Assembly (NCBI GenBank): GCA_050748205.1
Contig: JBOGOU010000513.1
Coordinates: forward strand, 9,966 to 73,965
Origin: Pyrinomonadaceae bacterium
Lineage (GTDB): Bacteria; Acidobacteriota; Blastocatellia; Pyrinomonadales; Pyrinomonadaceae
DNA length: 64,000 nucleotides
Direction of reading: 5' to 3'
The notes below the pieces were generated by a model. The model saw only the letters and a list, made by a program, of their open reading frames with translations, was not told the origin of the DNA and did no database searches. Shown piece by piece: positions 1 through 57,747 of the stretch (position 1 is its first letter; the number at the start of each line of letters is the position of its first letter). The position numbers were made by a program, and so were the translations under genes.

Positions 1-1366
1 GCGATATAACCAATGCGGAGCCGACGCTAAGCCGAAAACGGCCACGTCTTCCCCGAGTCGCCGTCTCTTTCAATGCCGATGTGAGATCAGTTCTTGTAGC
101 GCGGACGGCCGGGATGATGCCAAAGAGAAGCCCGGCGGCAAGCGAGATTCCGATGGTGAATCCGAGCACCGCAAAGTCCGGGTTAACATTCAGCGGCGCG
201 GTCTTGGCCAGGAGAGTAACTAAAACGCTGACAGCCCATTGCGCAAGAAAAATCCCACACATCCCTCCGATTACGGCAAGCAGAACACTCTCGGTGAGTA
301 GTTGGCGAATCAATCGAATGCGACTGGCCCCGAGCGCTTGTCGCAACGCGATTTCCGCTTGTCTTGCAGCGCCACGTGAAAGCAGCAGATTGCCGATATT
401 GGCGCAGGCTATCAACAACACCAGCAGCACGATCACCATCAGCATTTTCAAGGCTTCTGAATAGAAGAAACGCAATCCGGAAAGCCCGCGACCGCCTGGC
501 GCGAGCCGAACATATGAATTTTGTATACTTCGCCGGCGATCATCTGTTAACTGCGTTCCGGCTTGCTCGGTCAGGAATTGTTGTAGCTCCAGAGCGACAC
601 TGGCCTGGGCCTGTTCGATGTTGGTATTTGGCTTAAGCCGCCCCAGCATGTTTAGCCAGTAGACGGTTTCGTCCTTCAGGAATGAGTCCCGCATCCCTAT
701 CTGTGGCTGAAACGTAAGCGGCAACCAATAGTCCGGAGATCGTCGCACGCGCTCGCCGAAAAATTCGCGTGGCATGACACCAACAATTCTGAACGAGGTG
801 CCGTTCAGCACCACATCTTTGCCCACCGCTTGCTCGTCTTTGTTCCACTGCTGCTCCCAACAGCCGTAACTGATCACGGCTGCGGGTTGAGCATCAGGCG
901 CATCGTCTTCATTCCCAAGTACCCGGCCGTGCAAGGCACCGACACCGAGAACAGCAAAGTAATTACCGGAGACTAGATGACCCGATGCTCGCCGTGCGGC
1001 TCCACCACTCTGCGAGCCCACCTTCCACACACTCAGCCGGTCTTCGCCACTGCGAAAGGCGCTGAGTTCCTGGAAAGATGGATCATGATCTCGGAAATAA
1101 CGGTAGGCGGCATAAGAAAACAACCTCCATTCCCCGGTCGCCGGATCGCCTGTCGAGATCCCTTCACTTTCCGAATCGTTGAAGAGAACCAGGTCTTCAG
1201 GGGTTTTTACCGGCAGGGGTTTCAACAACACGGCATTAATTAATGTGAAGATGGCCGTGTTCGCTCCAATACCCAACGCGAGCGTAATCACCGCCACCAG
1301 GGTAAAGGCCGGACGCCTCAGTAACCCTCGGAGACCATAGCGAATGTCTTTCCAAATCGAGTCCAT
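1..1366 (-). CDS. ABC transporter permease, ADOP family (duplicated MacB_PCD+FtsX); N-terminal ~455 codons only, 3' end lies beyond the window start
   Basis: Minus-strand ATG at 1366 with GGAG upstream. My translation reads [40 protein letters not shown]... and later ...LLIACANIGNLLLSRGAARQAEIALRQALGASRIRLIRQLLTE, matching the 11 complete paralogs. The frame is open to base 2. It is missing from the ORF track only because it runs off the edge. Confidence 0.85.
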   Translation of the reverse strand, partial: MDSIWKDIRYGLRGLLRRPAFTLVAVITLALGIGANTAIFTLINAVLLKPLPVKTPEDLVLFNDSESEGISTGDPATGEWRLFSYAAYRYFRDHDPSFQELSAFRSGEDRLSVWKVGSQSGGAARRASGHLVSGNYFAVLGVGALHGRVLGNEDDAPDAQPAAVISYGCWEQQWNKDEQAVGKDVVLNGTSFRIVGVMPREFFGERVRRSPDYWLPLTFQPQIGMRDSFLKDETVYWLNMLGRLKPNTNIEQAQASVALELQQFLTEQAGTQLTDDRRRSIQNSYVRLAPGGRGLSGLRFFYSEALKMLMVIVLLVLLIACANIGNLLLSRGAARQAEIALRQALGASRIRLIRQLLTESVLLAVIGGMCGIFLAQWAVSVLVTLLAKTAPLNVNPDFAVLGFTIGISLAAGLLFGIIPAVRATRTDLTSALKETATRGRRGRFRLSVGSALVIS

Positions 1367-1470: not shown

Positions 1471-1517
1471 GACGCTAATCTCAAATCCGAAATCCGCAAT
1501 CCGAAAATTCGAAATTC
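1471..1517. repeat. Heptad array, family A (GAAATCC type), single arm with polar module
   Basis: gacgctaatctcaaatccgaaatccgcaatccgaaaattcgaaattc ends 1 nt from the stop at 1519. Only a degenerate partner (attgtcgattgccgatta, about 1407-1425) is present. Confidence 0.8.
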
Positions 1518-1518: not shown

Positions 1519-3981
1519 TCATTCGTATCGCAGCGCCACCAATGGATCGACCTTTGTCGCTCGGCGTGCCGGGACCAGACAAGCGACGAGAGCCACGAGC
1601 ACAAGCAACAAAGGAAACACTATGAAAGTCGTCACGTCGTAAGCGCTGACCCCAATCAATACTGACGAAAGGACACGGGCAAGGGCGAACGACAAGGCCA
1701 GCCCGATTACCACTCCGACTAGCGCCAACTTCATGCCCTGATTCGTGATCAGCTTCAATACATCACCGCGTCTTGCCCCGAGCGCCATGCGAATGCCGAC
1801 TTCGCGTGTGCGCTGCGATACGACATAGGCCATGACGCTGTAGAGCCCAACCGCGGACAACAACAGCGCTACTACTGCAAACGACAATGACAGAGTCGCT
1901 GCCATGTTCGGCGCCCAAAGTGCCCAGGTCATGTGTTCGTTCATCGTCTTAATCGCAAATAAAGGAATGCGCGGATCAAGCGCCTGCACTTCGTTGCGAA
2001 TCGCGCCGACTAGATTGCGCGGATCGCCATCAGTGCGGACCATCAACGTCATGCTCCCAGGGCTGCGCTGCTCTAGTGGATAGTACAAATAGGGACGCGG
2101 ATCTTCTGCGAGTGCTCGGTACTTGCCGGTTTTCACCACCCCAACCACTTCAATCGCGTCAGGACTATTGGGACCGATGAAGATACGCTTGCCAACAGCG
2201 CTCTCACCCGGCCAAAGCATTTGCGCCATCCTTTCGTTGACGATGACGACGCGCTGCGCGCCCTTGCGATCGCGGTCATCAAAATCGCGACCAGCGATCA
2301 TGGGGATCTGTAATGTCTTGAAGTGTCCAGGGCTGATGACGTTGGTCAGGATAGTACGGCCAGCGCTTCCCGGGCTTAGTGTTTCGCCCTCTTTCAAGAC
2401 GGGGCCGTTTGAATTGGAGCTGTCTCCCAAAGGCACCAAACGCGCGAGGCTGGCAGCCTGCACGCCGGGCAAGTTGCCTGCGCGTTCCGCAATTTGGCGA
2501 AAGAAAGTCTTTGTCTGTTCCTCGTTATAGCCAACCAGTTCCGGATTCAATGAAACCAGCAGCGCGCTCCTGGCTGAAAAGCCCGGATCCATTGTCTGTG
2601 CGTTGCGAAAACTCTTGATGAAGAGTCCGGCACAAACCAGCACCACGAGCGATAAGGCAACCTGGCCCACAACCAGGGAGTTCCGCAGCGAAAGCCGGCG
2701 ACGTTTGCCTGATTGTCCTGTACCTACATCGCCCTTCAGTACCGGTACGATCTCAGGATTCGACGCGTGCCATGCCGGCGCGAGACCAAAGATCAACCCC
2801 GTAGCTAATGAAACAACCAACGTGAATACAAGGGCGCTCTCGTCGAGCGCAAAGAAATCGTTGACCACGTTGTAGGGCAAAACCGGAACGAAGCCTTGCA
2901 TCAGACCCGTTACCCAATTAGCCAGCAAGAGTCCTAGTCCGCCACCCATCAGTGAGAGCAGCAGGCTTTCAGTCAGCAGTTGACGAAGCAGACGTACGCG
3001 ACTAGCTCCCAGTGCCACACGGACGCCGATTTCTCTCCGGCGTGAGGCTGCGCGTGCCAACAGCAGGTTCGCGACGTTCGCGCACGCAATAAGCAGAATG
3101 AGACAAACTATCGCCATGGCGATGGCTGATGCGCTTTTCATGATTCGTGACGCGTCGCCCCAACGCCCGTCAACCTCTGTCCGCACCACTACTGCGGTGT
3201 TACTTGCTCGATCGGTTGGGTAGGCCCGGTTCAAACGTTGCGCGATTGCCGACATTTCCGCACTAGCCTGCGTCCGAGTAACGCCTGGCTTCAGCCGGGC
3301 GAACATATTCATCCAGTGGTCGCCACGCGAACTCAACAAATCTGGTGCGTGCTGGAGGTCTTCAACCATCATCATGGGCGTCCAGAAGTCGAGGGAAAGA
3401 CCACTTTTCGTTCCCTTGAAAGATGCGGGCGCAACTCCAATCACGCTATAAGTGCGGTTGTTCAGCTCGATCGTTTTCCCGACAATGTTCGGATCAGATG
3501 AGAGGCGACGCTGCCATAGGCTGTGACTGATCACGAGGACGGGTTTTTCGCCACGCGTCTTATCTTCGTCAGGCGCAAAGGGGCGGCCCATAAATGGCTT
3601 CACTCGCAAGACCTCAAAGTAGTTTCCACTAACCACCTGGCCCCAGATGACGTCATTTTGATTCTGGGTGCTTATTGCTGCCTGTGCCAGGTCTTCGGCT
3701 ACGATTCCTTCAAAGACCGTGTTTTGATCTCGATAGTCGACATAGTCGGGATAAGAGAAACTGTCATTGAGGCCGCGATCGTCGGTTGTCTCGAACGGCC
3801 GGACCAGTTGCTCTGGTTCGGGTACCGGCAACGGGCGCAAAACAAACGCGCTGACGCCGCTGAAGATCGCCGCGTTTGCGCCGATACCGAGGGCGAGCGC
3901 GAGCACGGCCACTATCGTGGTGCCCGGCGCCTTCGCCAGCATGCGAATTCCGTAACGAAGGTCTTGCCAGAATGTCTGCAT
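1519..3981 (-). CDS. ABC transporter permease, ADOP family
   Basis: ORF 1519..4071. I moved the start to ATG 3981 (MQTFWQDLRYGIRMLAKAPG) because the 30 upstream codons only translate the heptamer repeat (..NPKSAIRN..). It has two [12 protein letters not shown]/FtsX blocks and ends [15 protein letters not shown]. Confidence 0.9.
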   Translation of the reverse strand: MQTFWQDLRYGIRMLAKAPGTTIVAVLALALGIGANAAIFSGVSAFVLRPLPVPEPEQLVRPFETTDDRGLNDSFSYPDYVDYRDQNTVFEGIVAEDLAQAAISTQNQNDVIWGQVVSGNYFEVLRVKPFMGRPFAPDEDKTRGEKPVLVISHSLWQRRLSSDPNIVGKTIELNNRTYSVIGVAPASFKGTKSGLSLDFWTPMMMVEDLQHAPDLLSSRGDHWMNMFARLKPGVTRTQASAEMSAIAQRLNRAYPTDRASNTAVVVRTEVDGRWGDASRIMKSASAIAMAIVCLILLIACANVANLLLARAASRRREIGVRVALGASRVRLLRQLLTESLLLSLMGGGLGLLLANWVTGLMQGFVPVLPYNVVNDFFALDESALVFTLVVSLATGLIFGLAPAWHASNPEIVPVLKGDVGTGQSGKRRRLSLRNSLVVGQVALSLVVLVCAGLFIKSFRNAQTMDPGFSARSALLVSLNPELVGYNEEQTKTFFRQIAERAGNLPGVQAASLARLVPLGDSSNSNGPVLKEGETLSPGSAGRTILTNVISPGHFKTLQIPMIAGRDFDDRDRKGAQRVVIVNERMAQMLWPGESAVGKRIFIGPNSPDAIEVVGVVKTGKYRALAEDPRPYLYYPLEQRSPGSMTLMVRTDGDPRNLVGAIRNEVQALDPRIPLFAIKTMNEHMTWALWAPNMAATLSLSFAVVALLLSAVGLYSVMAYVVSQRTREVGIRMALGARRGDVLKLITNQGMKLALVGVVIGLALSFALARVLSSVLIGVSAYDVTTFIVFPLLLVLVALVACLVPARRATKVDPLVALRYE

Positions 3982-3990: not shown

Positions 3991-4150
3991 AAATTGCCGA
4001 TTTCGGATTGCGGATTTCGGATTTTGTCTGAACCAATGTCGATTTATTCCGGGTCGAGTCTTTGTTGGCATTGCTCAGAACTTGTCAAACAGAATGCTAT
4101 TCGGTTGCACTACACAAATTTCGAAATCCGCAATCCGAAATCCGAAATTC
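3991..4150. repeat. Heptad-zipper element, family A, full copy
   Basis: The left arm is 3991-4025 (aaattgccgatttcggattgcggatttcggatttt). The right arm is 4116-4150 (aaatttcgaaatccgcaatccgaaatccgaaattc). They share 20 nt of perfect complementarity (atttcggattgcggatttcg) across a spacer of about 90 nt. Confidence 0.9.
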
Positions 4151-4157: not shown

Positions 4158-6596
4158 TCACTCGTAGCGCAGTGCCACCAGCGGATCGACTCTTGTGGCG
4201 CGGCGGGCCGGGAGGTAACAAGCAATTAGAGTGATCACAAACAAGCCAATTGCTACCGCTGCAAAAACGCTCGTGTCGGTCGTAGTTACTTCAAACAAAA
4301 GCGACACCATCAATCTGGTAAGTCCGAAAGACGCGATCAAGCCGGCTGCCACGCCGATTACTCCAAGGACGATGCCCTGTCTTACGACAAGTTTGAGCAC
4401 ATCGCTGTATTGAGCGCCCAAGGCCATGCGCAAACCGATTTCGTGAGTGCGCTGCAGCACGGAATAAGACATGACGCCGTAAATTCCCACCGCCGCCATC
4501 ACCAGGGCAACAAACGAAAAGACCGAGAGCAGTGTGGTATTGAAGCGCGACCGGGCAATGGACTTCGCAAGCAGACTGTCCATCGTGCTGACTTCACCAA
4601 TAGGTTGTTCGGGGTCGAGACCATGAATTACGTTTCGCGCAGCCGGCGCAATATTTAGAGCATCGCCTCGCGTTCTGATTACCACGGTCATGTACGGATA
4701 GGTCAGCTCCGGGTGGGCCCAGTAGGACATCGGTTCGATCTCCGCATCGAGGCCCATGTGTTTGTTGTCGCCGACGACCCCGATAATCTCCGAGGGGACA
4801 TTTTCGTCCTTCATGTCAATCGTTACTCGTTTGCCAATTGGATCTACCCCGGGCAAATACTTGCGCGCGAATGTCTCGTTAACGACGACGACGTGGCGCA
4901 TTTCACTCGCCTCTTGATCGGTGAAGAAGCGGCCCCGCTTGAGTGGGATCTGCATCGCCTGAAAATAGTATGCGTCGGTAACGCAGACACCGGTGATCAG
5001 TCCCTGGCCGGGCGGCAACTTTGGCTGGCCCTCGATTTCTACTCCTGTGCCCGAATGCGGTCCGGTGAACGGAAGAGTATTGATCGCTCCCACGGCCTCG
5101 ACTCCGGGAAGAGCTCGTACTTGCTCCACAGCTCGTCTGAAGAAATCGATTCGCTTGCTCTCGGTGTCATACTTTCTCATCGGCAGGCTGACACGCATCG
5201 TTAATAGGCTCTTTGGATTGAATCCAGGATCCACTGACTGCAGGCGGTTGAGGCTCTTCATGAGCAGACCGGCGCCCACGAGCAATACCAGGGCGAGAGC
5301 TACCTGGGTAACAACGAAGAGATTGCGGAAGCGATGACTACGCGCACCGCCGCCTATGTTTTTTACGCCTTCCTTAAGTGCTTCCTGGAGGTTGAAGCGT
5401 GCAGCCTCGAGCGCCGGCACCAGCCCGAAAAAGATTCCAGTCAGCAAAGACACGCCAAGTGTGAATCCCAGGACCGGGAGGTTCACTCTTACGTTACGGA
5501 GATCGATAAGCTCAGGCGGGCTGAGAGCGAGGAGAGCCTGCGTCCCCCACCACGCTACGAGCAAACCCAGCGCGGCTCCTAGTCCTGACAGGAGCACACT
5601 CTCGGTCAACAACTGCCGGACAATACGCCAGCGACTGGCGCCGAGCCCTGCTCTCACTGCTATCTCTCTTCTCCGTGAGGCAGCACGCGCCAGCAGGAGA
5701 TTTGCCACGTTCGCGCAGGCAATCAATAAGACAAAACCTACAGCGCCGAGCAAAATCAGCAACGGCTTGCGGATCTCACCGGTAAATTGAGCGCGCAGGG
5801 GAACAACGGTCACGCCCCACTTGGTGTTGAATTCCGGGTATTGCCCCTCGAGCCTCGCGCCAATGGTGTCCATCTCGCTCTGTGCCTGGGCAAACGTGAC
5901 ACCGGGCTTTAGGCGGGCCACAGCGCGGGCGAAGCGACCTTGACGCTGGCGCAATTCGTTTGAGACTTGCCACGGTGACCACATTTCCGCTGCCTTGTTG
6001 GTCATCGAGCCCTTCTGTATGTGCCACGCAAAATCGGCAGGTAAGACACCGATGATTGTGTTCTCCTGATTGTTTAGAGTGATCTTGCGACCAACGATCT
6101 GGGCGTCTCCACCAAAACGCCGTTGCCACAGTCCGTAGCTGATGACGATTACATTCGGCTGCCCTGTTTTGCCATCATCAGGTGCGAATGTACGTCCCAG
6201 AATTGAATTGACACCCAACAGAGAAAAGAGATTTGTCGTGGCAATTTGTCCCGGCACTTCTTCGGGTTCACCATTGCCTGTCAGATTAAGGGTGAGATCG
6301 AAAAACGCCGCCATGTCGGAGAAGACCGTGTTCTGCTCTTTCCAGTCGAAGAAGTTACCCAGATTAATCACGTTCTGCACGTCGGTCTTGCCCTTTTGTT
6401 TCTTCTCCCAGACGACTACCAGCCGTTCGGCGTCTGTATAGGGCAAGGCGCGCAGCAACACCGCATGGACCACACTAAAAATCGCAGTGTTAGCGCCAAT
6501 CCCGAGGGTCAAGGCGATCACCGCCACTAGAGTCACCACCGGGTTCTTCAGCAACATTCGCGCCCCAAACCGCAGGTCTTGCCACAATGTGTGCAT
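4158..6596 (-). CDS. ABC transporter permease, ADOP family
   Basis: 812 aa, MHTLWQDLRFGARMLLKNP ... [42 protein letters not shown] ... [26 protein letters not shown] lies about 5 nt upstream of the ATG. Confidence 0.92.
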   Translation of the reverse strand: MHTLWQDLRFGARMLLKNPVVTLVAVIALTLGIGANTAIFSVVHAVLLRALPYTDAERLVVVWEKKQKGKTDVQNVINLGNFFDWKEQNTVFSDMAAFFDLTLNLTGNGEPEEVPGQIATTNLFSLLGVNSILGRTFAPDDGKTGQPNVIVISYGLWQRRFGGDAQIVGRKITLNNQENTIIGVLPADFAWHIQKGSMTNKAAEMWSPWQVSNELRQRQGRFARAVARLKPGVTFAQAQSEMDTIGARLEGQYPEFNTKWGVTVVPLRAQFTGEIRKPLLILLGAVGFVLLIACANVANLLLARAASRRREIAVRAGLGASRWRIVRQLLTESVLLSGLGAALGLLVAWWGTQALLALSPPELIDLRNVRVNLPVLGFTLGVSLLTGIFFGLVPALEAARFNLQEALKEGVKNIGGGARSHRFRNLFVVTQVALALVLLVGAGLLMKSLNRLQSVDPGFNPKSLLTMRVSLPMRKYDTESKRIDFFRRAVEQVRALPGVEAVGAINTLPFTGPHSGTGVEIEGQPKLPPGQGLITGVCVTDAYYFQAMQIPLKRGRFFTDQEASEMRHVVVVNETFARKYLPGVDPIGKRVTIDMKDENVPSEIIGVVGDNKHMGLDAEIEPMSYWAHPELTYPYMTVVIRTRGDALNIAPAARNVIHGLDPEQPIGEVSTMDSLLAKSIARSRFNTTLLSVFSFVALVMAAVGIYGVMSYSVLQRTHEIGLRMALGAQYSDVLKLVVRQGIVLGVIGVAAGLIASFGLTRLMVSLLFEVTTTDTSVFAAVAIGLFVITLIACYLPARRATRVDPLVALRYE

Positions 6597-6620: not shown

Positions 6621-6655
6621 GGCTATAGGTCCAAAAAGTCCTATAGGTCCTATAA
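6621..6655. repeat. 9-nt tandem repeat, family B (TATAGGTCC / CCTATAGGA)
   Basis: ggctataggtccaaaaagtcctataggtcctataa, 10 nt from the stop at 6666. Confidence 0.85.
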
Positions 6656-6665: not shown

Positions 6666-9074
6666 TCACTCATACCGCAGCGCCACCAGCGGATCGACTC
6701 TCGTGGCTCTGCGCGCGGGGATCCACGACGCAAACAGCCCGATAACAGTTAGCAACATCGAAATCGCAATAAGCGTTACGGGGTCGTTCGCGCTGACACC
6801 GAACAAGAGACCCTTCATCAACCGCGTCAAAGCAAGCGACGCCATTAGTCCAAGCCCGATTCCGGTCAGCGCCAGCACTAACCCCTGGCCCATGATCAAT
6901 CGCATCACGTCACCGGCCTGTGCGCCCAGAGCCATGCGTAAACCGATTTCGTGTGTTCGTTGCCTGGTCGAATAATTGATGGATCCATAAACCCCGATAC
7001 CAGCCAGCGTCAGGGCCAGGACAGCAAACGAGACGAGCAGAAACAGATTGAAGCGGCGCTGTCTCAGTGAATCATTAACGAGCTGGTCCATCGTCGCGGT
7101 TTTCGAGAATGTCTGATTAGGGTTGATTTGACGGATGGCTGTCTTCACAGCCGGCAGCACTGCCGCGGGGTCGGCTGTTGTCTTTACCACGAACGTCATT
7201 TGCACGGTCGGACTTTGGTGATAAGTAACGAACATCTCCGGTCGCGGGTTAGCGTCGAGCCCGCTATGCAGAACGTCGCCTATGACTCCAACAATTTCTC
7301 GCTCGACTGTCTGATCGAACATCACCGTAAGTCTCTTGCCCACCGGGTCTTCATCAGGGAAGAAACGACGCGCCATCGTCTCGTTTATGACGACGACCTG
7401 CGCTGAATCTTCTTTGTCGAACTTTGTGAAAAAACGACCACGTCGCACCGGGACGCTCATCGTGCTTAGATAATCGTTTGAGACTTCGATGTAGAAGGCG
7501 CTCGGTTCCTTTCCCTTTGGTGGCCCAGGTCTGCCGTGAATGGTGAACGGAGCGTCTTGTTCCAAATTGACAAAGGGCGGGCTGGAAACTAAGGCCGCCG
7601 ACTGCACGCCGGGCACAGACTGGACCTTCTCGAGCGTCTGGTCGAAAAACCCAGTGATCTGCTCGGGCTTCTGGTAGGTCCTGCTCAAGAAAACCTGCAG
7701 AGCAAGCAGGCGCTCTTTATCAAACCCCGGGTCAACTTGCTGCAAGGCCACGAAACTCCTGACGAGCAGACCAGCACCAGTCAATAGCACCAGAGCGACG
7801 GCTACTTCCGCCACCACCAGTGAATTCCGCACCCAGTAACCCGTCGAACCACCAACTGCGCCGCGTTCACCTTCTTTCAGAGTTGATTGAAGGTTGGGCC
7901 GCGAGAATTGAGTTGCGGGAATCAAACCGAAGATGATTGCTGTGAGAACCGAAACTGCCAGCGCAAATAACATCACCCGGGCATCTACGTTGACAGACTC
8001 GATGCGGGGAATTTTTGCAGAGTTGAAAGCGAGGATTAGCCTGACTCCCCACGAACCCAGTAGCAGACCGCCAACGCCTCCCAACAATGCGAGCAAGAGG
8101 CTCTCGGTCAACAACTGGCGAACCAAACGAACGCGCGCAGCGCCCAGCGCCGATCGAATCGCAAACTCCCGCTGTCTTTCAGCGCCGCGTACTAGAAGTA
8201 AGTTGGCGACGTTTCCGCAAGCGATCAAAAGCACGAAACCGACCGCCCCTAACAAAATCCACAGTGCTGATCTCACGTGGCCGGTCAGTTGTTCAGACAA
8301 GAGCACGACCGTCGCACCCATCCCGCCATTCGTATCCGGATACTCTGAGGCAAGCCGCGCCGCAATACCGCTCATTTCGCCTTGCGCCTGATCGACTGTG
8401 GTCCCCGGTTTCAATCTCGCGATCACATTCCAGTAGGTGGGGCCGCGCAACTGTCTATCGCTTTCTCGCAACACACGGGGCGCCCAGACTTCTCTGTCGG
8501 GCGGAAACTGAAACTCGGCCGGCATGATTCCGACGACGCTGTAAGGCTGACCGTTTAGTGTCAACTTTTGTCCAATTAAATTTTGATCGCCGCCGAAGCG
8601 CCGCTGCCATAAGCTCTGGCTGATTACCACAACGCGTTCGTTGCCTGGCCGGTAATCCTCTGCACTGAAGGTTCGACCGTGAAGCGCACTCGAGCCGAGC
8701 GTTTCAAAGAAACCTTCTGTCACGAGCCAGGCTGGGAACCTTTCCGGCTCGCCATTGCCTATTAAGCTGAAACCAAATGGCTCGACGCCCGCCATCGCTT
8801 CAAACGACCGGCTCTGTTCACGCCAGTCGAGGAAATTAGCAGGCGACACATCATTACGGGGCACACCAGCCTTCGCATTGTTTTGCCAAAGCGTGACGAT
8901 GCGTTCGGAGTCACGATAAGGAAGTGGGCGAAGGAGAACCGCATTCACAACACTGAAGATCGCCGTGTTTGCTCCGATGCCGAGCGCAAGCGTGATCACT
9001 GCAAACAAAGTAAAGGCAGGTCGCTTTAGCAGGCTTCTGACTCCGTAGCGAACGTCACGAAATAAGGTTTCCAT
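6666..9074 (-). CDS. ABC transporter permease, ADOP family
   Basis: 802 aa, METLFRDVRYGVRSLLKRPAFT ... [15 protein letters not shown]. Duplicated FtsX architecture. GGGGGA SD upstream. Confidence 0.92.
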   Translation of the reverse strand: METLFRDVRYGVRSLLKRPAFTLFAVITLALGIGANTAIFSVVNAVLLRPLPYRDSERIVTLWQNNAKAGVPRNDVSPANFLDWREQSRSFEAMAGVEPFGFSLIGNGEPERFPAWLVTEGFFETLGSSALHGRTFSAEDYRPGNERVVVISQSLWQRRFGGDQNLIGQKLTLNGQPYSVVGIMPAEFQFPPDREVWAPRVLRESDRQLRGPTYWNVIARLKPGTTVDQAQGEMSGIAARLASEYPDTNGGMGATVVLLSEQLTGHVRSALWILLGAVGFVLLIACGNVANLLLVRGAERQREFAIRSALGAARVRLVRQLLTESLLLALLGGVGGLLLGSWGVRLILAFNSAKIPRIESVNVDARVMLFALAVSVLTAIIFGLIPATQFSRPNLQSTLKEGERGAVGGSTGYWVRNSLVVAEVAVALVLLTGAGLLVRSFVALQQVDPGFDKERLLALQVFLSRTYQKPEQITGFFDQTLEKVQSVPGVQSAALVSSPPFVNLEQDAPFTIHGRPGPPKGKEPSAFYIEVSNDYLSTMSVPVRRGRFFTKFDKEDSAQVVVINETMARRFFPDEDPVGKRLTVMFDQTVEREIVGVIGDVLHSGLDANPRPEMFVTYHQSPTVQMTFVVKTTADPAAVLPAVKTAIRQINPNQTFSKTATMDQLVNDSLRQRRFNLFLLVSFAVLALTLAGIGVYGSINYSTRQRTHEIGLRMALGAQAGDVMRLIMGQGLVLALTGIGLGLMASLALTRLMKGLLFGVSANDPVTLIAISMLLTVIGLFASWIPARRATRVDPLVALRYE

Positions 9075-9094
9075 AGCGAATCCCCCACTTCAAT

Positions 9095-9124
9095 GCCAAT
9101 TGCCGATTGCCAATTGCCGATTTT
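9095..9124. repeat. Heptad array (GCCRATT x4)
   Basis: gccaattgccgattgccaattgccgatttt, 20-50 nt upstream of ATG 9074. Confidence 0.85.
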
Positions 9125-9288
9125 GGAGTGCGCCGGCAGAGCGAAGCGGCGACGGCGCTTTTGTCCGATAAACTTCAGTTTGTCTCTCTGGGGCGAAACC
9201 AGATTCCATCGAAGCATCGACAAACTGAAGTTTATCGGACAAATCCAAAGCGGTGTCGCGCTAGCGCTTGCCACCGCACTCCACAAAA
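9121..9288. repeat. Nested palindromic element, family C
   Basis: The outer arms are 9121-9163 and 9246-9288 (ttttggagtgcgccggcagagcgaagcggcgacggcgcttttg / caaagcggtgtcgcgctagcgcttgccaccgcactccacaaaa). The inner inverted repeat is a perfect 22 bp, 9163-9184 against 9219-9240. Confidence 0.9.
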
Positions 9289-9291
9289 GGC

Positions 9292-11751: not shown

Positions 11752-11788
11752 GTTCACTCCTTATTCGTACCTTAGTGCCACCAACGCC

Positions 11789-11880
11789 GTGGCACAGACT
11801 TCAGTCTGTGTGACCGCCTTGTTCACCCTCCAACCTTGAAAGGTTATTCATCCCCAAACTCAGACTGAAGTCTGTGCCAC
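11789..11880. repeat. 92-bp palindrome-terminated element, family D, copy 1
   Basis: It starts gtggcacagacttcagtctgtg and ends cagactgaagtctgtgccac. These are 20-bp terminal inverted repeats, and each is itself palindromic. Confidence 0.9.
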
Positions 11881-11914
11881 AGGCTTCTAGCGCCTCTTGG
11901 TGGTCAGCAACAGT

Positions 11915-11965
11915 CAACTGACGCCAATCTCAATTTCGAAATCCGAAATCCGAAATCCGAAATTC
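11915..11965. repeat. Heptad array, family A, single arm with polar module
   Basis: caactgacgccaatctcaatttcgaaatccgaaatccgaaatccgaaattc abuts the stop codon at 11966. Confidence 0.9.
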
Positions 11966-14404
11966 TCACTCGTAGCGCAGCGCCACCAACGGATCGACTC
12001 TCGTCGCGCGTCGCGCCGGTACGTAACAGGCAATCAAAGCGACGGCGATCAAAACGAATGAGACGGTGACAAACGTCACAGAGTCGGTAGTGGTCACGCC
12101 AAACAGCAAACCCTCCATCAAGCGCGTCAGTGCAAACGCCCCCAACAATCCAGCTGAGACACCAATCAAGGTTAGGAGCATCCCGTTTCCCATAATCAGT
12201 TTCATTATGTCTTTCGCCTGGGCCCCGAGCGCCATTCGTATCCCGATCTCATGGGTTCGTTGCGAAGCCGCATAAGACATGACGCCATAGATCCCCACAG
12301 CCGCGAGAATCAGCGCCAACGCGGCAAAGACGAGCAGCAAGAGCATGAAAAACCTCCTAATCAAGATTGATTCGCCCATTAACTGTTCGAGCGTCGTCAC
12401 ATTGAAAACTGCCTGATCCTTGTCGACCGCCAGGATCTCGCGCCGGATGGCGTTAGTCAGAGCGGTTGGTTCGGTTTCAGTTTTGACTACTATGCTGTTG
12501 AAGGAAGTAGGAAACTGCGCTTGTGGTACATAGATCTGCATCGGCGGCTTCCTGTCCAGCGCGTATTGCGCAACATCGCTGATAACGCCGACAACAGTGC
12601 GCCACGGTTGTGGATTCTTTTCACTTCCCGGAAAGCTTATACGTTTGCCTAGCGGGTCTTCGTTGGGCCATAACTGGGCGGCCATCGTGCTATTAATCAG
12701 CGCAATCTTGAATGAGTCGGGAGTGTCTTGTTCAGTAATCGAACGCCCTTTCAGCAGCGGGATCTCCAATGCGCGAAGGTAACCCGGTGTGGCGATGTAC
12801 AGGTCGACGGTAATCTCTTCGCCCCGAGGCTTGGGATGGTCTTCAACCAAAAGCCCTCTGCCGTCGAAGTTGTCGCTGAGTGGAAGCACGCTGGTCATGC
12901 CGGCGGCTTTGACTCCGGGCAGTGCCGCGAGGCGATCGGTAAGTTGTTTATTAAACGAGATCCAATTCTCCGGTTTGGGATACTTGATGCCGGGCAGGCC
13001 AATATTCATCGCCAAAACGTTTTGTGAGTTGAATCCCGTAGCGACATTCTTGAGTCGCGCCACTGTTCTGATGAGTAGGCCGGCACAAACCAAAAGCACC
13101 AGCGTCATCGCGATCTCGGAAATGACGAGCACGCTGCGCAAACGATTGCGACTTGCGGAAGGTCCAGAACCACGTCCCCCCTCCTTGAGCGATTCCGCCA
13201 GGTTTGGCTTTGATGTTTGCAAGGCAGGCGCGAGTCCGAAGATCAGGCCCGTGATTATCGAGATTGCGAAGGTAAATCCAAGTACACGGATATCCACGTG
13301 GATGTTCTGAAACATGGGATTGATCTTGTCGCCGAATGACGCGACCAGGCCGGTACCCCACATTGCGAACATCAAACCGAGAGCACCGCCCACGAGCGAT
13401 AGCAACAGGCTTTCGGTCAACAACTGGCGAAGGAGTTGGCTTCGCACGGCGCCAATGGCCGAGCGAATAGTCATTTCTTTGTACCTGACGGTCGCACGCG
13501 CCAGCAGGAGATTCGCAACGTTTGCGCAAGCAACAAGCAGAACAAAAACCACCGCACCAAATACCAACAAAAGCGTTGGCCGAATGCCGCCGACAATTTC
13601 ATCGGTTATGGAAACCACATCCGCGCCCTGGTTCTTGTTGGTCAACGGATGCTCTTGCTCAAGGCGTTGAGCGATGACATTCGTTTCAGTCTGCGCGTGT
13701 TCAAGCGTTACGCCGGGTTTGAGCCGTGCAATGGCGCGCAAGTGACGCTCGTCGCGGGCCGAGTCGTCGTAAGCTTCCGCAACGGGTCTGTAAAACTGGC
13801 CTTCCGGCGACACCAGAGATGAAGGAAGTGGTTGAAAATCGGCGCCCATGACGCCGACTATGTTGTAAGGGCGACTGTTGAGCGGGACGGTCTTGCCAAT
13901 GATATTTGGGTCGCCCCCAAAACGGCGTTGCCACAGGCCGTAACTCAAGACTATGACGAAGTCTTTACCGTCTTCTTGCTCTTCCGCGGTGAAGACGCGC
14001 CCGAGCAAAGGCTGGCCTTTCATTACTTTGAAGAAGCCGTCGCCCACCTGAATCGCGGGAATCCTTTCGGCTTCGCCATCGCCCGACATGATGGGATACC
14101 ACCCGGAATAAGTTGCGACCTCCTCAAAAACACTCGACTGAGCGCGGAAGTCTGCTACATCGGTCGCTGAAACCTGATTGTGCTTTCTTCGGTTGGTTTC
14201 CGATTTGGTGTCTCCCCACAGCAGCACGAGACTATTCGGATCTTTGTAAGGTAACGATTTCAGAAGCACTGCATTGACGACGCTGAATACGGTGGTGTTT
14301 GCGCCGATGCCGAGCGCGATCGACAGGAGAGCCACTGCTGTGAAGGCCGGGCTCTTGATCAACATCCGGACGCTGTAGCGAACGTCACGAAATAAGGTTT
14401 CCAT
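11966..14404 (-). CDS. ABC transporter permease, ADOP family
   Basis: 812 aa, METLFRDVRYSVRMLIKSPAFT ... [15 protein letters not shown]. Confidence 0.92.
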   Translation of the reverse strand: METLFRDVRYSVRMLIKSPAFTAVALLSIALGIGANTTVFSVVNAVLLKSLPYKDPNSLVLLWGDTKSETNRRKHNQVSATDVADFRAQSSVFEEVATYSGWYPIMSGDGEAERIPAIQVGDGFFKVMKGQPLLGRVFTAEEQEDGKDFVIVLSYGLWQRRFGGDPNIIGKTVPLNSRPYNIVGVMGADFQPLPSSLVSPEGQFYRPVAEAYDDSARDERHLRAIARLKPGVTLEHAQTETNVIAQRLEQEHPLTNKNQGADVVSITDEIVGGIRPTLLLVFGAVVFVLLVACANVANLLLARATVRYKEMTIRSAIGAVRSQLLRQLLTESLLLSLVGGALGLMFAMWGTGLVASFGDKINPMFQNIHVDIRVLGFTFAISIITGLIFGLAPALQTSKPNLAESLKEGGRGSGPSASRNRLRSVLVISEIAMTLVLLVCAGLLIRTVARLKNVATGFNSQNVLAMNIGLPGIKYPKPENWISFNKQLTDRLAALPGVKAAGMTSVLPLSDNFDGRGLLVEDHPKPRGEEITVDLYIATPGYLRALEIPLLKGRSITEQDTPDSFKIALINSTMAAQLWPNEDPLGKRISFPGSEKNPQPWRTVVGVISDVAQYALDRKPPMQIYVPQAQFPTSFNSIVVKTETEPTALTNAIRREILAVDKDQAVFNVTTLEQLMGESILIRRFFMLLLLVFAALALILAAVGIYGVMSYAASQRTHEIGIRMALGAQAKDIMKLIMGNGMLLTLIGVSAGLLGAFALTRLMEGLLFGVTTTDSVTFVTVSFVLIAVALIACYVPARRATRVDPLVALRYE

Positions 14405-14424: not shown

Positions 14425-14551
14425 ATTGCCAATTGCCTATTGCCAATTGCCAATTTCGAATTTGAAATTGGCGTCAGTTGATTCTGTTACCTGACTACCC
14501 AGAGATCGCTAAGCGCCAAATCCGAAATTCGCAATCCGAAATTCGAAATTC
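14425..14551. repeat. Heptad-zipper element, family A / ATTGCCA hybrid
   Basis: The left arm (14425-14477) is 7 heptads drifting from ATTGCCA to ATTTCGA, then ttggcgtcag. The right arm (14513-14551, gcgccaaatccgaaattcgcaatccgaaattcgaaattc) abuts the stop at 14552. Confidence 0.85.
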
Positions 14552-16354
14552 TCACTCGTATCGCAGCGCTACCAGCGGATCGACTTTCGTAGCGCGACGT
14601 GCCGGGATGTAACAGGCGATTAAAGCAACAAGCGCCAACAGCGTCGCCACTGCAATAAACGTCACGGGGTCTTTCGCAGTCACGCCATATAGCAAACTGG
14701 CCATCACTCGGGTCAGCGCGAATGCACCTACCAGGCCAAGTGCCACACCCAGCACCACCAGAGTCATTCCCTGGCGAACGACCAGCTTAAGAACATCAAA
14801 CCTGCGCGCGCCTAATGCCATTCGGACACCGATCTCGTGGGTTCGCTGCGTAACCGAATAAGACATCACACCGTAAATCCCAGTAGAGGCGAGCACCAGC
14901 GCCAGTCCGGCAAACAATCCGAGCAAAGCCGTGCGATAACGTGGACCCGCGACAGCGGAATCAACCCACCGTTCCATAGTTTTGACGGCGGCCACGGGTT
15001 GATCAGGATCGATTGCCTGCACTTCTTTCCGGACCGCAGCCGTCAGATTTGCAGGATCGCCTTTCGTGCGAATCACGACATTCATCCAGCCGGTCGCGTA
15101 GGTTGGCATGTACATCGCCGCAAACGGCTGGGATTCCAGGGCCCGGTGACGGATGTCACCAACGATGCCGATGATTATTAGACCAAAGATAAGAGCGGTA
15201 GAGAGCGAGAGCGCCAGAGTGAACAGCAGAACGCGAGGTTCGAGACCGATCTGTTCAAGCCGCGGAATGTTGCCCGGATTTAGCGCAACGAGAAGATCGA
15301 GGCTGGTCCCGGCCAGCGTGAGACCGGCGCCGCCACCGATGAGCGCCAAAATAAGACTCTCGGCCAGCAACTGCCGTATGACGCGCCACCGGCTTGCGCC
15401 CAACGCCGTTCGAATTGAGATTTCCTTCTGACGCGTTTCTCCCCGGGCCAGCAACAGGTTTGCTACGTTCGCACAGGCGATTAGCAACACAAATCCCACC
15501 GCGCCCAACAGCGCAAGCAATGCCAGTCGCACGTTACCCACAATCGATTCCTGGAGCGGCGTCAGGTATGAACGAAAGGATCCGTCTGCGGGGTAATAGG
15601 TGGGGTTCTCTTTTACTACTCTACCAATAATTAAATTGGTTTCGGCCGCTGCCTGTGAAGCAGTCACGCCAGGGCGTAAGCGCCCGATCGTGTTCACGCC
15701 GTGGCTGCCAAGATTCAAACTGGCATAGTTCAAGCCGAGCGGAGTCACGAGCTGGGCACTCACACCATTTTGCAAATCCGCCGGCGATTGGAAGGCCTCC
15801 GGCAGCACCCCGATAATGTTTAGGCTGTTGCCTCCGAGCGTAACTGTCTGGTTTATGACGTTCGGATTCGCGCCGAAGTGAGTTTGCCAAAAGTCGTAAG
15901 CCAGCATAGCCACGTTTGCGCGACTCTGCTCGTCTTCTCCCGACAAGAAGGTGCGACCCAGTCGCGGGTTGATTCCCAGTAAGGAAAAGAAATTATCCGA
16001 GACTACGGTTACACGAACACGCTCCGGCTCCCCTGCCCCGGTCAGCGTTAACGTCCCGCTTTGATAAGCGCCAACCTCCACGAAACTTTTGTTCTCATTG
16101 CGCAACCTCACGAATTCCATCTGAGTTAGACCAGCCTGTGAAAAGCCTGCCGAGGCTAACGAGTCGTTCACTTGCACCAGTTCCTGCGGTCGTTGGTAAG
16201 GCAAGGGTCGGAGTAGCACTGAATTGACTACACTGAAGATCGTCGTGTTTGCACCGATGCCGAGCGCGAGCGTAATCACTGCAACCGCGGTAAAACCGGG
16301 CCGCTTCAACAGATTTCTAACTCCGTAATGAATGTCTCTGAAGAGTGTTTCCAT
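14552..16354 (-). CDS. ADOP-family permease variant with an in-frame internal deletion of about 210 aa (possibly non-functional)
   Basis: 600 aa. The N-half is normal up to ...LALSLSTALIFGL, then the sequence jumps to IIIGIVGDIRHRALESQP..., which is the end of periplasmic domain 2. The junction is near 15176-15182. The C-terminus [15 protein letters not shown] is intact. Confidence 0.8.
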   Translation of the reverse strand: METLFRDIHYGVRNLLKRPGFTAVAVITLALGIGANTTIFSVVNSVLLRPLPYQRPQELVQVNDSLASAGFSQAGLTQMEFVRLRNENKSFVEVGAYQSGTLTLTGAGEPERVRVTVVSDNFFSLLGINPRLGRTFLSGEDEQSRANVAMLAYDFWQTHFGANPNVINQTVTLGGNSLNIIGVLPEAFQSPADLQNGVSAQLVTPLGLNYASLNLGSHGVNTIGRLRPGVTASQAAAETNLIIGRVVKENPTYYPADGSFRSYLTPLQESIVGNVRLALLALLGAVGFVLLIACANVANLLLARGETRQKEISIRTALGASRWRVIRQLLAESLILALIGGGAGLTLAGTSLDLLVALNPGNIPRLEQIGLEPRVLLFTLALSLSTALIFGLIIIGIVGDIRHRALESQPFAAMYMPTYATGWMNVVIRTKGDPANLTAAVRKEVQAIDPDQPVAAVKTMERWVDSAVAGPRYRTALLGLFAGLALVLASTGIYGVMSYSVTQRTHEIGVRMALGARRFDVLKLVVRQGMTLVVLGVALGLVGAFALTRVMASLLYGVTAKDPVTFIAVATLLALVALIACYIPARRATKVDPLVALRYE

Positions 16355-16370
16355 GGTGTCATTTCCCCAC

Positions 16371-16462
16371 GTGGCATAGACTCCAGTCTGTGTCGCCGCC
16401 TTATGGATCTCCCAACCTTCAAGTTATCGCTGCCGACGATCACAGACTAAAGTCTGTGCCAC
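16371..16462. repeat. 92-bp palindrome-terminated element, family D, copy 2
   Basis: It runs gtggcatagactccagtctgtg...cacagactaaagtctgtgccac. The interior is homologous to copy 1 (cgcctt, cccaacctt, gttat blocks). It ends 1 nt before the stop at 16463. Confidence 0.9.
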
Positions 16463-18520: not shown

Positions 18521-18626
18521 GAATTTCGGATTTCGGATTGCGGATTGCGGATTTGAGATCGGCGTCAGGTGGCTCGCTTTCTACCTAAACCAAAATCCGA
18601 AATCCACAATCCGAAATTCGAAATTC
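18521..18626. repeat. Heptad-zipper element, family A, full copy (polar module inverted)
   Basis: The left arm is 18521-18568 (gaatttcggatttcggattgcggattgcggatttgagatcggcgtcag). The right arm is 18590-18626 (ccaaaatccgaaatccacaatccgaaattcgaaattc) and abuts the stop at 18627. Confidence 0.9.
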
Positions 18627-21075: not shown

Positions 21076-21110
21076 CCAGGTCCAATAAGTCCTAGAGGTC
21101 CTATAGGTCA
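21076..21110. repeat. 9-nt tandem repeat, family B
   Basis: ccaggtccaataagtcctagaggtcctataggtca. The last 3 nt are the stop codon of 21108..23525. Confidence 0.85.
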
Positions 21111-23537: not shown

Positions 23538-23660
23538 AAATTTCGGATTTCGGATTGCGAATTTCGAATTTGGCGTTTACCGATCTTTTGAGTGGTCAGG
23601 CGACAGAATTAACCGACGCCAATCTCAAATTCGAAATTCGCAATCCCAAATTCGAAATTC
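23538..23660. repeat. Heptad-zipper element, family A, full copy
   Basis: The left arm is 23538-23576 (aaatttcggatttcggattgcgaatttcgaatttggcgt). The right arm is 23616-23660 (acgccaatctcaaattcgaaattcgcaatcccaaattcgaaattc). Confidence 0.9.
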
Positions 23661-26157: not shown

Positions 26158-26181
26158 GCCATTCTCCAGTGAATCCAATTC

Positions 26182-26220
26182 GGCTATCGGTCCAATAAGT
26201 CCTATAGGTCCTATAGGTCA
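26182..26220. repeat. 9-nt tandem repeat, family B
   Basis: ggctatcggtccaataagtcctataggtcctataggtca overlaps the stop of 26218..28638. Confidence 0.85.
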
Positions 26221-39524: not shown

Positions 39525-39648
39525 GCATTTTCATTTTCCATTTGACATTTTTCATTTGTCATTGTTGGAGGAGGGGCCGTCACTCAGGCCCTTCCCTTCA
39601 ACAACGACGAATGTGCAATTATGTGCAATGACAAATGAAAAATGATGG
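39525..39648. repeat. Heptad-zipper element built from CATTTKN heptads
   Basis: The left arm is 39525-39568 and the right arm 39599-39648. The perfect 19-bp core is 39546-39564 (catttttcatttgtcattg) against 39626-39644. The ATG at 39635 lies inside the right arm. Confidence 0.88.
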
Positions 39649-40063: not shown

Positions 40064-40064
40064 G

Positions 40065-40216
40065 CGGTCTTGGTTTTGGGGTTTTTGGTCTTGGATCTTT
40101 GGTCTTTGTGCTTTGATCTTTGATCTAGCTTTGAAGTTGAACCTGTAGCTTCAGAATACAAAGTTCAAAGCTCAAAGGACAAAGTTCAAAGACCCAAAAC
40201 CAAAGGCCAAAGACCG
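40065..40216. repeat. Heptad-zipper element built from CTTTGNN / NNCAAAG heptads
   Basis: The left arm is 40065-40143 (..ctttggtctttgtgctttgatctttgatc..). The right arm is 40154-40216 (acaaagttcaaagctcaaaggacaaagttcaaagacccaaaaccaaaggccaaagaccg). The outer ends are cggtctt.. and ..aagaccg. Confidence 0.88.
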
Positions 40217-40293
40217 TTTTGCCTTAGAACATTTCTCGCCTTGCTGCGTATACTCTTCCCACGTTTGATCCTGTTCGGAACTGGAGACACTTA

Positions 40294-42000: not shown

Positions 42001-42003
42001 CTA

Positions 42004-42087
42004 AGATCTTTGAGATCTGAGATCTCAGATCTCAGATCTCAGATCTCAGATCTCAATACGATTCACCATTTACCATTCACCATTTAC
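42004..42087. repeat. Self-complementary AGATCT heptad array plus a TYACCAT heptad array
   Basis: (GAGATCT)2(CAGATCT)4 spans 42012-42054, with a perfect 22-bp palindrome at 42012-42033. tcaccatttaccattcaccatttac spans 42063-42087 and overlaps the stop at 42084. Confidence 0.9.
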
Positions 42088-42782: not shown

Positions 42783-42786
42783 GGTT

Positions 42787-44979: not shown

Positions 44980-45023
44980 AGGGTTTCCTTTCGGCGTGCA
45001 GCGGCAAAGATGGCGGCATTAGG

Positions 45024-45226: not shown

Positions 45227-45245
45227 TGCTCAGATAAAAGATGAG

Positions 45246-45962: not shown

Positions 45963-45974
45963 TCTACTGTGCCT

Positions 45975-51580: not shown

Positions 51581-51701
51581 GAATTTCGGATTTCGGATTT
51601 CGGATTTCGGATTTCGAATTGCTCTCCTTTGTTCTACGTTTGCTCTCTTCTGCGAAAATCCGGGCAATGGTAGCAAATCCGAAATCCGAAATCCGAAATT
51701 C
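51581..51701. repeat. Heptad-zipper element, family A, between convergent genes
   Basis: The left arm is 51581-51620 (GGATTTC x4 flanked by GAATTTC/GAATT). The right arm is 51675-51701 (GAAATCC x2 then GAAATTC). Confidence 0.9.
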
Positions 51702-54842: not shown

Positions 54843-54967
54843 GTGCTTTGTACTTTGTGCTTTGACCTTTGTGCTCAGAATAATACCGAACGCAGTATAG
54901 AATGGCGACGGCTCGTTCGTACAAGTAACCAAGTTCCAAGTACAAAGCTCCAGGGTACAAAGCACAA
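54843..54967. repeat. Heptad-zipper element built from GTGCTTT / AAAGCAC-type heptads
   Basis: The left arm is 54843-54876 (gtgctttgtactttgtgctttgacctttgtgctc). The right arm is 54919-54967 (..gtacaaagctccagggtacaaagcacaaa) and ends at the folK ATG. Confidence 0.85.
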
Positions 54968-57621: not shown

Positions 57622-57747
57622 AAATTTCGGATTTCGAATTGCGAATTGCGAATTTGCCTGTGGCTTGTCTTGAATGATCTCTTTGTTCTTACAATTCGCG
57701 TACCCGAAAGAAAATCCGAAATCCGATGTTCGAAATCCGCAATTTGC
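57621..57747. repeat. Heptad-zipper element, family A (imperfect)
   Basis: The left arm is 57621-57657 (aaaatttcggatttcgaattgcgaattgcgaatttgc) and starts at the last base of the panC TGA. The right arm is 57710-57747 (gaaaatccgaaatccgatgttcgaaatccgcaatttgc). Confidence 0.8.

Follow-up and report, generated by a model that had tools for sequence, protein, structure and literature searches.

An excess of heptanucleotide tandem repeats in bacterial genomes has been noticed several times: with the STRR sequences of cyanobacteria in 1990 (Mazel, as cited in PMC4679880 and PMC4692102), in the 2007 survey of Mrazek, which in the account given by PMC4679880 made heptanucleotides the commonest class of long simple sequence repeats (SSRs) and suggested polymerase slippage, in Geobacter in 2009, and in Xanthomonas and Beggiatoa in 2015. 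The present work concerns a stretch of 64,000 nucleotides from a Pyrinomonadaceae bacterium (Acidobacteriota; assembly GCA_050748205.1, contig JBOGOU010000513.1, forward-strand positions 9,966 to 73,965; hereafter the window), in which the gene spacers carry inverted pairs of heptad arrays, GGATTTC on one side and GAAATCC on the other, that we call zippers. To our knowledge, the bacterial heptanucleotide excess has never been explained.

Two of the closest described systems are those of Geobacter and Xanthomonas. In Geobacter metallireducens, Aklujkar et al. (2009; PMC2700814) found eight site pairs whose members lie on opposite strands, a variable distance apart; 15 of the 16 sites consist of five tandem MTYCTGA heptads, one pair lies between proB and proA, and 49 further elements of four heptads occur within and between genes. 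These class 3 sites were read, without a test, as sites for an IHF/HU-type protein (PMC2700814). In Xanthomonas, Rehm et al. (2015; PMC4692102) reported GGGAATC arrays with a mode of four units and 70-75 convergent inverted pairs per genome, which lie on average 28 nt from the upstream open reading frame (ORF) and are transcribed, and for which no function was found. According to the same authors, the GGGAATC repeats of Xanthomonas and the GGGGA(C/T)T repeats of Nostoc are 89-93% intergenic and vary in length and sequence between close species, and the preference for four units is linked to G-quadruplex formation (PMC4692102). Our full-text literature search returned nothing on heptanucleotide tandem repeats in Acidobacteria, and no match for the strings GGATTTCGGATTTC, GAAATCCGAAATCC and KSEIRNP. 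The original prediction, made from the letters of the window, knew of no paired-heptad element in Acidobacteriota; this stands as far as the literature of that phylum goes, but paired arrays had already been described in Geobacter and Xanthomonas. The zippers are the paired form of a widespread bacterial class of heptanucleotide tandem arrays (heptameric long SSRs, STRR-like); the class is not new in kind, and the window adds an example from the Acidobacteriota.

Eight GGATTTC/GAAATCC loci had been predicted in the window, six as full inverted pairs and two as single arms (1471-1517 and 11915-11965), and all eight are present where they had been placed. The six pairs form stems of 27-36 bp with 76-100% Watson-Crick pairing, across loops of 38-86 nt. 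In the copy at 3991-4150, read on the + strand, the left arm CCGATTTCGGATTGCGGATTTCGGATTTTG is followed after 86 nt by the right arm CGAAATCCGCAATCCGAAATCCGAAATTC; its best gapless stem joins 3992-4027 to 4114-4149 with 32 Watson-Crick pairs at 36 positions, and the variant unit GGATTGC occupies matched positions in both arms. In the other copies, the gapless stem has 31/34 Watson-Crick pairs at 18521-18626, 32/34 at 23538-23660, 27/27 at 51581-51701, 27/34 at 57621-57747 and 26/34 at 14425-14551, where the left arm is mostly made of another unit, ATTGCCA, and terminates in ATTTCGAATTTG. An arm slid by 7 or 14 nt retains 71-93% complementarity, which bears out the proposal that the stem can pair in several registers. 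In folding energy, most copies lie 3.4-7.4 standard deviations (SD) below shuffled controls: the whole spacer of zipper 1 has a minimum free energy (MFE) of -55.9 kcal/mol versus -40.1±4.2 in the shuffles, while the zipper at 57621 reaches only z = -1.2. The arms of the eight loci are the following.

1471..1517: single GAAATCC arm, immediately behind the stop codon of the ADOP gene 1519-3981 (- strand); partner not found.
3992..4027: zipper 1, arm G-rich on the + strand (GGATTTC/GGATTGC); adjoins the start of the ADOP gene 1519-3981 (-).
4114..4149: zipper 1, other arm; the ADOP gene 4158-6596 (-) has its stop codon (4158-4160) 8 nt away.
11931..11965: single perfect (CGAAATC)x3.9 arm; borders directly on the ADOP gene 11966-14404 (-) at its stop codon (11966); the remainder of the spacer holds a different long hairpin.
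14425..14468: zipper 2, left arm, mostly ATTGCCA x4; pairs with 14515-14551 (26/34 Watson-Crick).
14515..14551: zipper 2, GAAATTC/GAAATCC arm; borders directly on the permease gene 14552-16354 (-) at its stop codon (14552).
18521..18554: zipper 3, G-rich arm; the gene 16463-18502 (-) starts 18 nt away; MFE z = -6.3.
18593..18626: zipper 3, C-rich arm; borders directly on the ADOP gene 18627-21065 (-) at its stop codon (18627).
23538..23571: zipper 4, G-rich arm; the gene 21108-23525 (-) starts 12 nt away; MFE z = -6.1.
23627..23660: zipper 4, C-rich arm; the gene 23662-26178 (-) has its stop codon 1 nt away.
51581..51622: zipper 5, G-rich arm; 10 nt past the stop codon of the acidobacterial VWA gene 50351-51571 (+); MFE z = -7.1 on the + strand and -5.9 on the - strand.
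51674..51701: zipper 5, C-rich arm; the convergent Schlafen/AlbA_2 gene 51703-53010 (-) has its stop codon 1 nt away.
57622..57655: zipper 6, G-rich arm; begins at the base after the panC stop codon (57619-57621); identical in the Logan contig L001.
57712..57745: zipper 6, C-rich arm; the 2Fe-2S (Fer2) subunit gene starts 65 nt further on (57811).

A two-unit probe (GGATTTCGGATTTC, at most 2 mismatches) gave 37 matches versus 0.85 expected, all of them at these eight loci, and Tandem Repeats Finder reported a period-7 array of 3.6-5.4 copies at every arm. The heptad arrays returned by this program and by our own detector have 3.6-6.1 copies each; a strict detector yielded 12 arrays at period 7 and 0-1 at each other period within 4-12. 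The arrays are mostly intergenic, 21 of the 24 period-7 arrays being located in the non-coding 11.8% of the window (binomial P=4e-17). An assembly artefact is excluded, since Logan contigs match the window and complete and long-read genomes carry the arrays too: a separate Logan assembly of SRR27067740 has two contigs that are 100% identical to the window over 52988-55502 and 56260-59094, stretches which include two zippers (54843-54967 and 57622-57745). Exact-protein look-ups with panC, the Fer2 subunit and folK returned this same sample only, and no strain variants. The listing of the family in the original prediction was correct for the loci that it named and incomplete, about five further heptad loci with other units having been overlooked:

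9094..9122: solo array TGCCAAT x4.1, a little upstream of where the ADOP gene 6666-9074 (-) starts.
39526..39645: zipper CATTTGT...ACAAATG (arms at 39526/39627), 19/19 Watson-Crick, z = -7.4; holds a GC-rich inner hairpin and spans from 1 nt past the stop codon of a 2000-aa gene into the next start codon.
40066..40215: zipper GGTCTTT/GATCTTT...CAAAGAC (arms at 40066/40158), stem of 47 positions, 38/47 Watson-Crick, z = -5.7; begins 2 nt past the stop codon of the gene 39635-40063 (+).
42011..42055: single, self-complementary AGATCTC x6.1 array that folds on itself, between convergent genes, z = -5.8; an unrelated CACCATT array follows at 42057-42087.
54843..54967: zipper CTTTGTG...CAAAG (arms at 54843/54925), between the divergent genes 53138-54832 (-) and folK, 54968 (+); an A/C-rich arm faces each start codon; identical in the Logan contig L224.

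From their coordinates, zippers and solo arrays take up about 1.3 kb, or roughly one sixth, of the non-coding DNA, which amounts to 7.5 kb. Two further heptad arrays lie within genes, at 46614-46682 and 63441-63465; the one at 46614-46682, a 9.6-copy CCTGCCT array contained entirely in the GH92 gene 45975-48980 (-), should give the glycosyl hydrolase a heptapeptide repeat.

The rules that govern these arrays were drawn from the window together with about 220 fetched loci. The length of the GGATTTC arrays peaks at 31-34 nt (100/171) and that of arrays of other units in the same loci at 32-33 nt, and nothing comparable is seen at periods 5, 6 and 8-11; perfect runs cluster at 26, 33 and 40 nt, the dominant 33 nt corresponding to five GATTT cores joined by CG. 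An inverted partner is present within 250 nt for 170 of 402 arrays, 58% being solo. Related neighbours separated by 5-200 nt are inverted with the G-rich arm 5' in 60 cases, inverted with the opposite polarity in 7 and direct in 14 (mostly split arrays); counted by unit family, the polarity is 21 versus 5. Because an inverted repeat reads alike on both strands, this polarity is a real asymmetry. Furthermore, arrays which start at most 15 nt past a stop codon have G>C on the sense strand in a ratio of 63:21, and those which end at most 20 nt before a start codon have C>G in a ratio of 70:21. Solo arrays alone display the same bias (32:10 for G>C behind stop codons and 35:13 for C>G ahead of start codons), so that the polarity of the zippers follows from a rule obeyed by the single array. 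The density of array starts after the stop codon is 8.2 per nt at -3..2, 6.0 at 3-7 and 1.2-2.0 beyond 15 nt. In the window, the 5' arm begins 0-10 nt past the upstream stop codon in all cases, and the gap between the 3' arm and the following start codon is variable, ranging from an overlap to 78 nt. The loops measure 7-86 nt across copies and differ in sequence.

Several observations indicate that the arms are maintained as DNA. The minus-strand genes at 1519-28638 are duplicated permeases of the ADOP family (the gene tested, 4158-6596, scores 1015.7 bits against TIGR03434, with a cut-off of 622), and, as the original prediction had noticed, zippers also stand beside unrelated genes, the one before 51581 matching TIGR03436 (acidobacterial VWA) and the one before 57621 being panC. 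The ADOP paralogues share 39-52% protein identity and the arms in their spacers are near-identical nonetheless; the variant unit GGATTGC is found at the same position in most copies of the window, and an alignment of these copies reveals conservation of the arms alone and not of the loops. With paralogues so far apart, the near-identical arms are not leftovers of gene duplication and must be younger, or kept alike; an origin of the shared arms in the duplication of the ADOP genes was rejected, the paralogues being too old for neutral spacers to remain alike. On the sense strand of 25 zippers between co-directional genes, 30 G·U are counted versus 25 A·C, and this near-equality, combined with the near-identity of the ADOP arms, points to maintenance at the DNA level.

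The comparison of orthologous junctions, for which 80 relatives were collected by a metagenome scan with panC, revealed the filled and empty sites that had been looked for, and a unit family that differs at the same junction. At the panC|Fer2 junction, where GGATTTC too is among the units carried by relatives, the genes of several relatives overlap (ATGA, 4-nt overlap) or are parted by a plain short spacer, others carry zippers made of CAGATTA (L125), AGATTTC (L126), CGTAAAT (L139) or TTCGTGA (L136), and L135 has AGATTTC heptads for which no clear right arm was seen; still others have unrelated hairpin repeats or a small inserted gene pair. In L122, L138 and L148, a two-gene cassette of toxin-antitoxin-like appearance lies between panC and the Fer2 gene. 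At the panB|panC junction, a zipper is present in 14 relatives, where it extends from 0 to about 40 nt past the panB stop codon up to just before the panC ATG and belongs to one of five unit families (CAGAAGT, GTGGTCA, GGTCTTT, AATCGTG, AGTCTGG); in the window and its nearest relatives this junction is a spacer of 15-50 nt with no zipper. The families found at the junctions recur elsewhere on the same contigs, and the unit families look like a shared library whose members overwrite one another, rather than the product of slow divergence in place. Some panC|Fer2 units differ by one base (GGATTTC, AGATTTC, AGATTAC), and some unit change may proceed by point mutation followed by homogenisation; since the same families are present at other loci of the same contigs, replacement from a library fits better. 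In the XDH-type large subunit, in-frame heptad arrays of three families occupy one loop (L147, L149, L153), which suggests block-wise copying. This surface loop of the molybdopterin subunit (KFSGW to GKGIGIACSSY; 59806-59844 in the window) is a hot spot for in-frame inserts, of which 3 are heptad arrays and 5 are palindromic and REP-like (L138, L146, L147, L149, L150, L152, L153, L156).

The GGATTTC block itself is common to at least 10 phyla. An exact scan for (GGATTTC)3 with one genome per species returned at least 120 loci, and the taxa among the matches listed are Verrucomicrobiota, Planctomycetota, Acidobacteriota, Chloroflexota, Bacteroidota, Myxococcota, Gemmatimonadota, Patescibacteria, Nitrospirota, several proteobacterial classes and a metagenome-assembled genome (MAG) of Heliobacteriaceae; the carriers include the complete Planctomycetes chromosome CP087563 and long-read assemblies. 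The acidobacterial MAG SZAS-13 has GGATTTC matches in 11 fetched 8-kb blocks, at most 5 per block, and two of its zippers partly share their inner flanks. Phages were considered as a vehicle, and the 22 (GGATTTC)3 matches in viral contigs gave no sign of it. Perfect GGATTTC blocks of 29-34 nt are also found in frame within the genes of IleRS (L041), DnaE (twice; in the finger domain in L073), UvrA (L004), an FtsX permease (L056) and two debranching-enzyme-like proteins; the loci concerned, which also include L049 and L038, are from Planctomycetota, Bacteroidota and Verrucomicrobiota. Their translation is always KSEIRNPKSEI. Read directly, GGATTTC gives no stop codon in any of the six frames, which makes a test for coding arrays based on a spanning ORF noisy, and in-gene cases were kept only when protein domains were recognized on both sides. 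Stepwise expansion by 7 nt would frameshift the gene, and the in-frame blocks therefore argue for insertion or conversion in one step.

Any explanation must fit a period of 7 only, a length of about 33 nt for every unit and an orientation relative to stop and start codons that is fixed even for solo arrays, together with the DNA-level maintenance of the arms, the replacement of families at orthologous sites and the presence of blocks across phyla, essential genes included. The reading that we tentatively prefer, as the most plausible of those considered, is that the zippers are dispersed repeats which evolve in concert at the DNA level and fill gene spacers, the hairpin being a by-product or only weakly useful. 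The basic unit would be one array of about five heptads (about 33 nt). It would either follow a stop codon directly, the G-rich strand then being the sense strand, or closely precede a start codon, with the C-rich strand as the sense strand. A gene spacer that received the same family on both sides would thus acquire an inverted pair of fixed polarity, 5'-(GGATTTC)n ... (GAAATCC)n-3' on either strand, and such a pair could fold into a hairpin of 27-47 bp across most of the spacer. The arrays would be made and kept as DNA: units would be gained or lost within an array by replication slippage, copying between arms and between loci would proceed via template switching, gene conversion or a mobilising activity, and each genome would hold a small library of unit families overwriting one another. 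The hairpin could zip out the spacer, keeping the stop codon and the next start codon close, and would provide a generic 3'-end structure comparable to that of REP/BIME elements; the zippers would not act as a sequence-specific regulator.

Several points weigh against this preferred reading. The panB|panC zippers of the 14 relatives, which remain complementary while the unit changes, could be equally compatible with a selected hairpin, and the sharp 31-34-nt mode, whatever the unit, is not predicted by simple slippage. No copying or mobilising enzyme was identified in the single 64-kb window of the source genome. Moreover, the wider counts rest on relatives and on loci chosen for GGATTTC x3, the source genome is represented by this one window, and gene limits in the fetched loci were taken from ORFs of at least 150 codons, not from annotation.

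Selection for an RNA hairpin, that is, an intercistronic or 3'-end structure that stabilises the upstream message, serves as an RNase III target or couples translation from stop to start while its sequence is free to drift, would account for stems of 27-47 bp with 76-100% Watson-Crick pairing, for the folding energies of most copies, for the 5' arm that begins 0-8 nt behind the stop codon in the window, for a panB|panC zipper kept in 14 relatives despite its differing unit, and for the overlapping or closely spaced genes of relatives which have no zipper; furthermore, most such repeats of Xanthomonas are transcribed (PMC4692102). We nevertheless consider it rather unlikely, as G·U shows no excess over A·C on the sense strand, pairing is poor at 57621 (27/34, z = -1.2) and 14425 (26/34), the element is missing at the same junction in close relatives and 58% of the arrays are solo. 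In particular, the terminator or stabiliser under selection of the original prediction was not upheld: there is no U-tail, as the ...GAAATTC at the end of the 3' arms gives way to non-T sequence, none of the terminator-like sites in 39000-58500 (21 versus 23.3 in shuffles) falls on a zipper, and Rfam 15 at the gathering threshold returned 0 matches over the whole window, so that a canonical terminator and a known RNA family were both rejected. The hypothesis of a non-autonomous transposable element (MITE, foldback or REPIN-like), with heptads as terminal inverted repeats and a transposase acting in trans, is unlikely in our view. It would explain the many dispersed copies per genome, a fixed polarity such as terminal repeats would have, the outermost unit, which is usually the variant (G/A)AATTTC, the filled and empty sites among relatives, the inner flanks common to the two SZAS-13 zippers and the in-frame blocks in IleRS, DnaE and UvrA. 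On the other hand, a target-site duplication of at least 2 nt is found in 3/71 pairs versus 5.9 expected from shuffled partners, the loops vary in sequence and length (7-86 nt), solo arrays follow the same orientation rule, and no transposase was linked to the elements in the one 64-kb window, whose ORFs were only partly screened. A MITE with target-site duplication was rejected on the lack of excess duplication; what survives of the mobile repeat originally proposed is that the elements are dispersed, are replaced between relatives and form in-frame blocks, and what does not is a target-site duplication or, in the window, a conserved loop. More doubtful is the idea that blocks of five units and about 33 nt are written in one step by a dedicated length-measuring process present in at least 10 phyla, of which the zippers would be the most visible footprint, with templated 3'-end extension, snap-back synthesis at breaks, and block conversion or transposition as candidate mechanisms. 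The length mode independent of the unit and the replacement of families at fixed sites, including a coding loop, speak for it; the perfect in-frame blocks of IleRS, DnaE and UvrA favour it as well, since stepwise +7 slippage would pass through frameshifts, and the G-rich strand running toward the centre on both strands is the polarity expected from the extension of two 3' ends.

A binding platform for a protein that reads DNA or RNA in steps of 7 nt, about five units being the predicted footprint of an oligomer, has possible models in a nucleoid or global regulator, as put forward for Geobacter, and in the ribbon-helix-helix omega repressor of pSM19035, which binds 7-bp heptads. It would fit a length narrowly set at about five units for any unit and the small number of families per genome; the Geobacter authors called the same architecture class-3 sites of a global regulator (PMC2700814), and cold-shock proteins bind one heptamer each according to MacGregor et al. 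(PMC4679880). A single specific binder, however, does not fit the coexistence of several unrelated unit families within a few kb (window, L139, L126), the change of family at an orthologous site between relatives, the arrays in frame inside genes and the same unit in at least 10 phyla, and we regard the platform as improbable. The CsrA-type platform reading GGA, which had been suggested for the window, fares no better: the GGA triplets lie inside the predicted stem, and families devoid of GGA (CAGAAGT, AATCGTG, GTGGTCA) share the architecture. Least credible of all, and very improbable, is a G-quadruplex in the G-rich arm, whose four G-tracts would require four to five units. The GGATTTC arrays do have GG every 7 nt, but two-tetrad quadruplexes with 5-nt loops are weak. 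GGGAATC-type repeats, with their four-unit mode, form G-quadruplexes in vitro (Rehm et al., PMC4692102); here, G3+ tracts are absent from GGATTTC, which has GG only, several families are without any GG, and the length mode and the polar pairing hold for units devoid of GG such as CAGAAGT, AATCGTG, CAGATTA, CGTAAAT and AGTCTGA. As the length mode is seen in units with no G-tract, the G-quadruplex explanation of the four-unit preference is not general. Both the CsrA platform and the G-quadruplex were rejected on the unit families that lack GGA or GG.

Other repeats share the spacers of the window. A second dispersed repeat consists of about 3.5 tandem 9-nt units (TATAGGTCC/CTATAGGTC) over 31-36 nt, at 6623-6654, 21078-21109, 26184-26219 and 53098-53128; in three ADOP copies (6623, 21078 and 26184) it fills the short spacer from the stop codon to the Shine-Dalgarno region, and similar 9-mers occur within a zipper loop of the relative L126. 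Near-perfect long hairpins of another family (core CACAGACTGAAGTCTGTG / GGACAAACTGAAGTTTATCGGAC) are located in the ADOP spacers 9075-9291, 11758-11930 and 16355-16462, the first two of which have MFE z = -7.5 and -6.4. The window also contains a REP-like palindromic element (GGGGCAGTAGCCCGACTGTCAAGGAGGGCTC...) in repeated form, at 45024-45226 and 45825-45877; this element is also found at the panC|Fer2 junction of L123 and L124, its loop being inverted between the two. Finally, the permease ORFs 14552-16354 and 16463-18502, of 600 and 679 aa, stand in the place of a single expected ADOP gene of about 810 aa, and together with the hairpin-bearing spacer between them suggest a split or rearranged paralogue.

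In practice, elements of this kind enlarge intergenic spacers, can break short-read assemblies, and can pass for terminators, small RNAs or regulator sites. How, then, do the zippers relate to the systems already described? The FB foldback transposons of Drosophila have long inverted arms made of short tandem repeats around a variable or absent centre; they differ in being eukaryotic, of kilobase scale, built of 10-31-bp units and linked to a transposase. The REP, BIME and REPIN elements are short intergenic repeats, often in inverted hairpin pairs after genes and in genome-specific families, with a likely generic effect on mRNA 3' ends, and the original comparison with REP/BIME as functional analogues is reasonable. 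Each REP unit is an imperfect palindrome, whereas the arms described here are direct tandem arrays with no internal palindrome, save the AGATCTC array at 42011; REPINs have a conserved spacing and a cognate RAYT transposase, whereas the loops of the window vary. The analogy with the STRRs is apt, as these are tandem 7-nt units in several dispersed, intergenic families. The units of STRR1-3 are CCCCAGT, TTGGTCA and CAACAGT, and none of the window units GGATTTC, GGTCTTT, CATTTGT, AGATCTC, TGCCAAT and CTTTGTG is one of them; we take the units GTGGTCA and ACTGTTT of the relatives to be close to STRR2 (TTGGTCA) and to the complement of STRR3 (CAACAGT). The STRRs differ in being described as direct arrays, for which hairpin pairing is not defining, with units unlike GGATTTC.

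The Xanthomonas and Nostoc repeats resemble those of the window in that the G-rich strand is the sense strand after a stop codon and the antisense strand before the next ORF (PMC4692102). Their units differ by G3-G4 tracts that form G-quadruplexes in vitro, whereas GGATTTC and most families here have no strong capacity to do so, and Nostoc has few inverted pairs. The class 3 sites of Geobacter belong to another phylum and have a unit other than GGATTTC, and no statistics of polarity, length or turnover were given for them. They resemble the zippers in their opposite-strand heptad pairs, set at variable distance in operon spacers, and their consensus MTYCTGA is the complement of the TCAGAAG unit present in the relatives L146 and L147.

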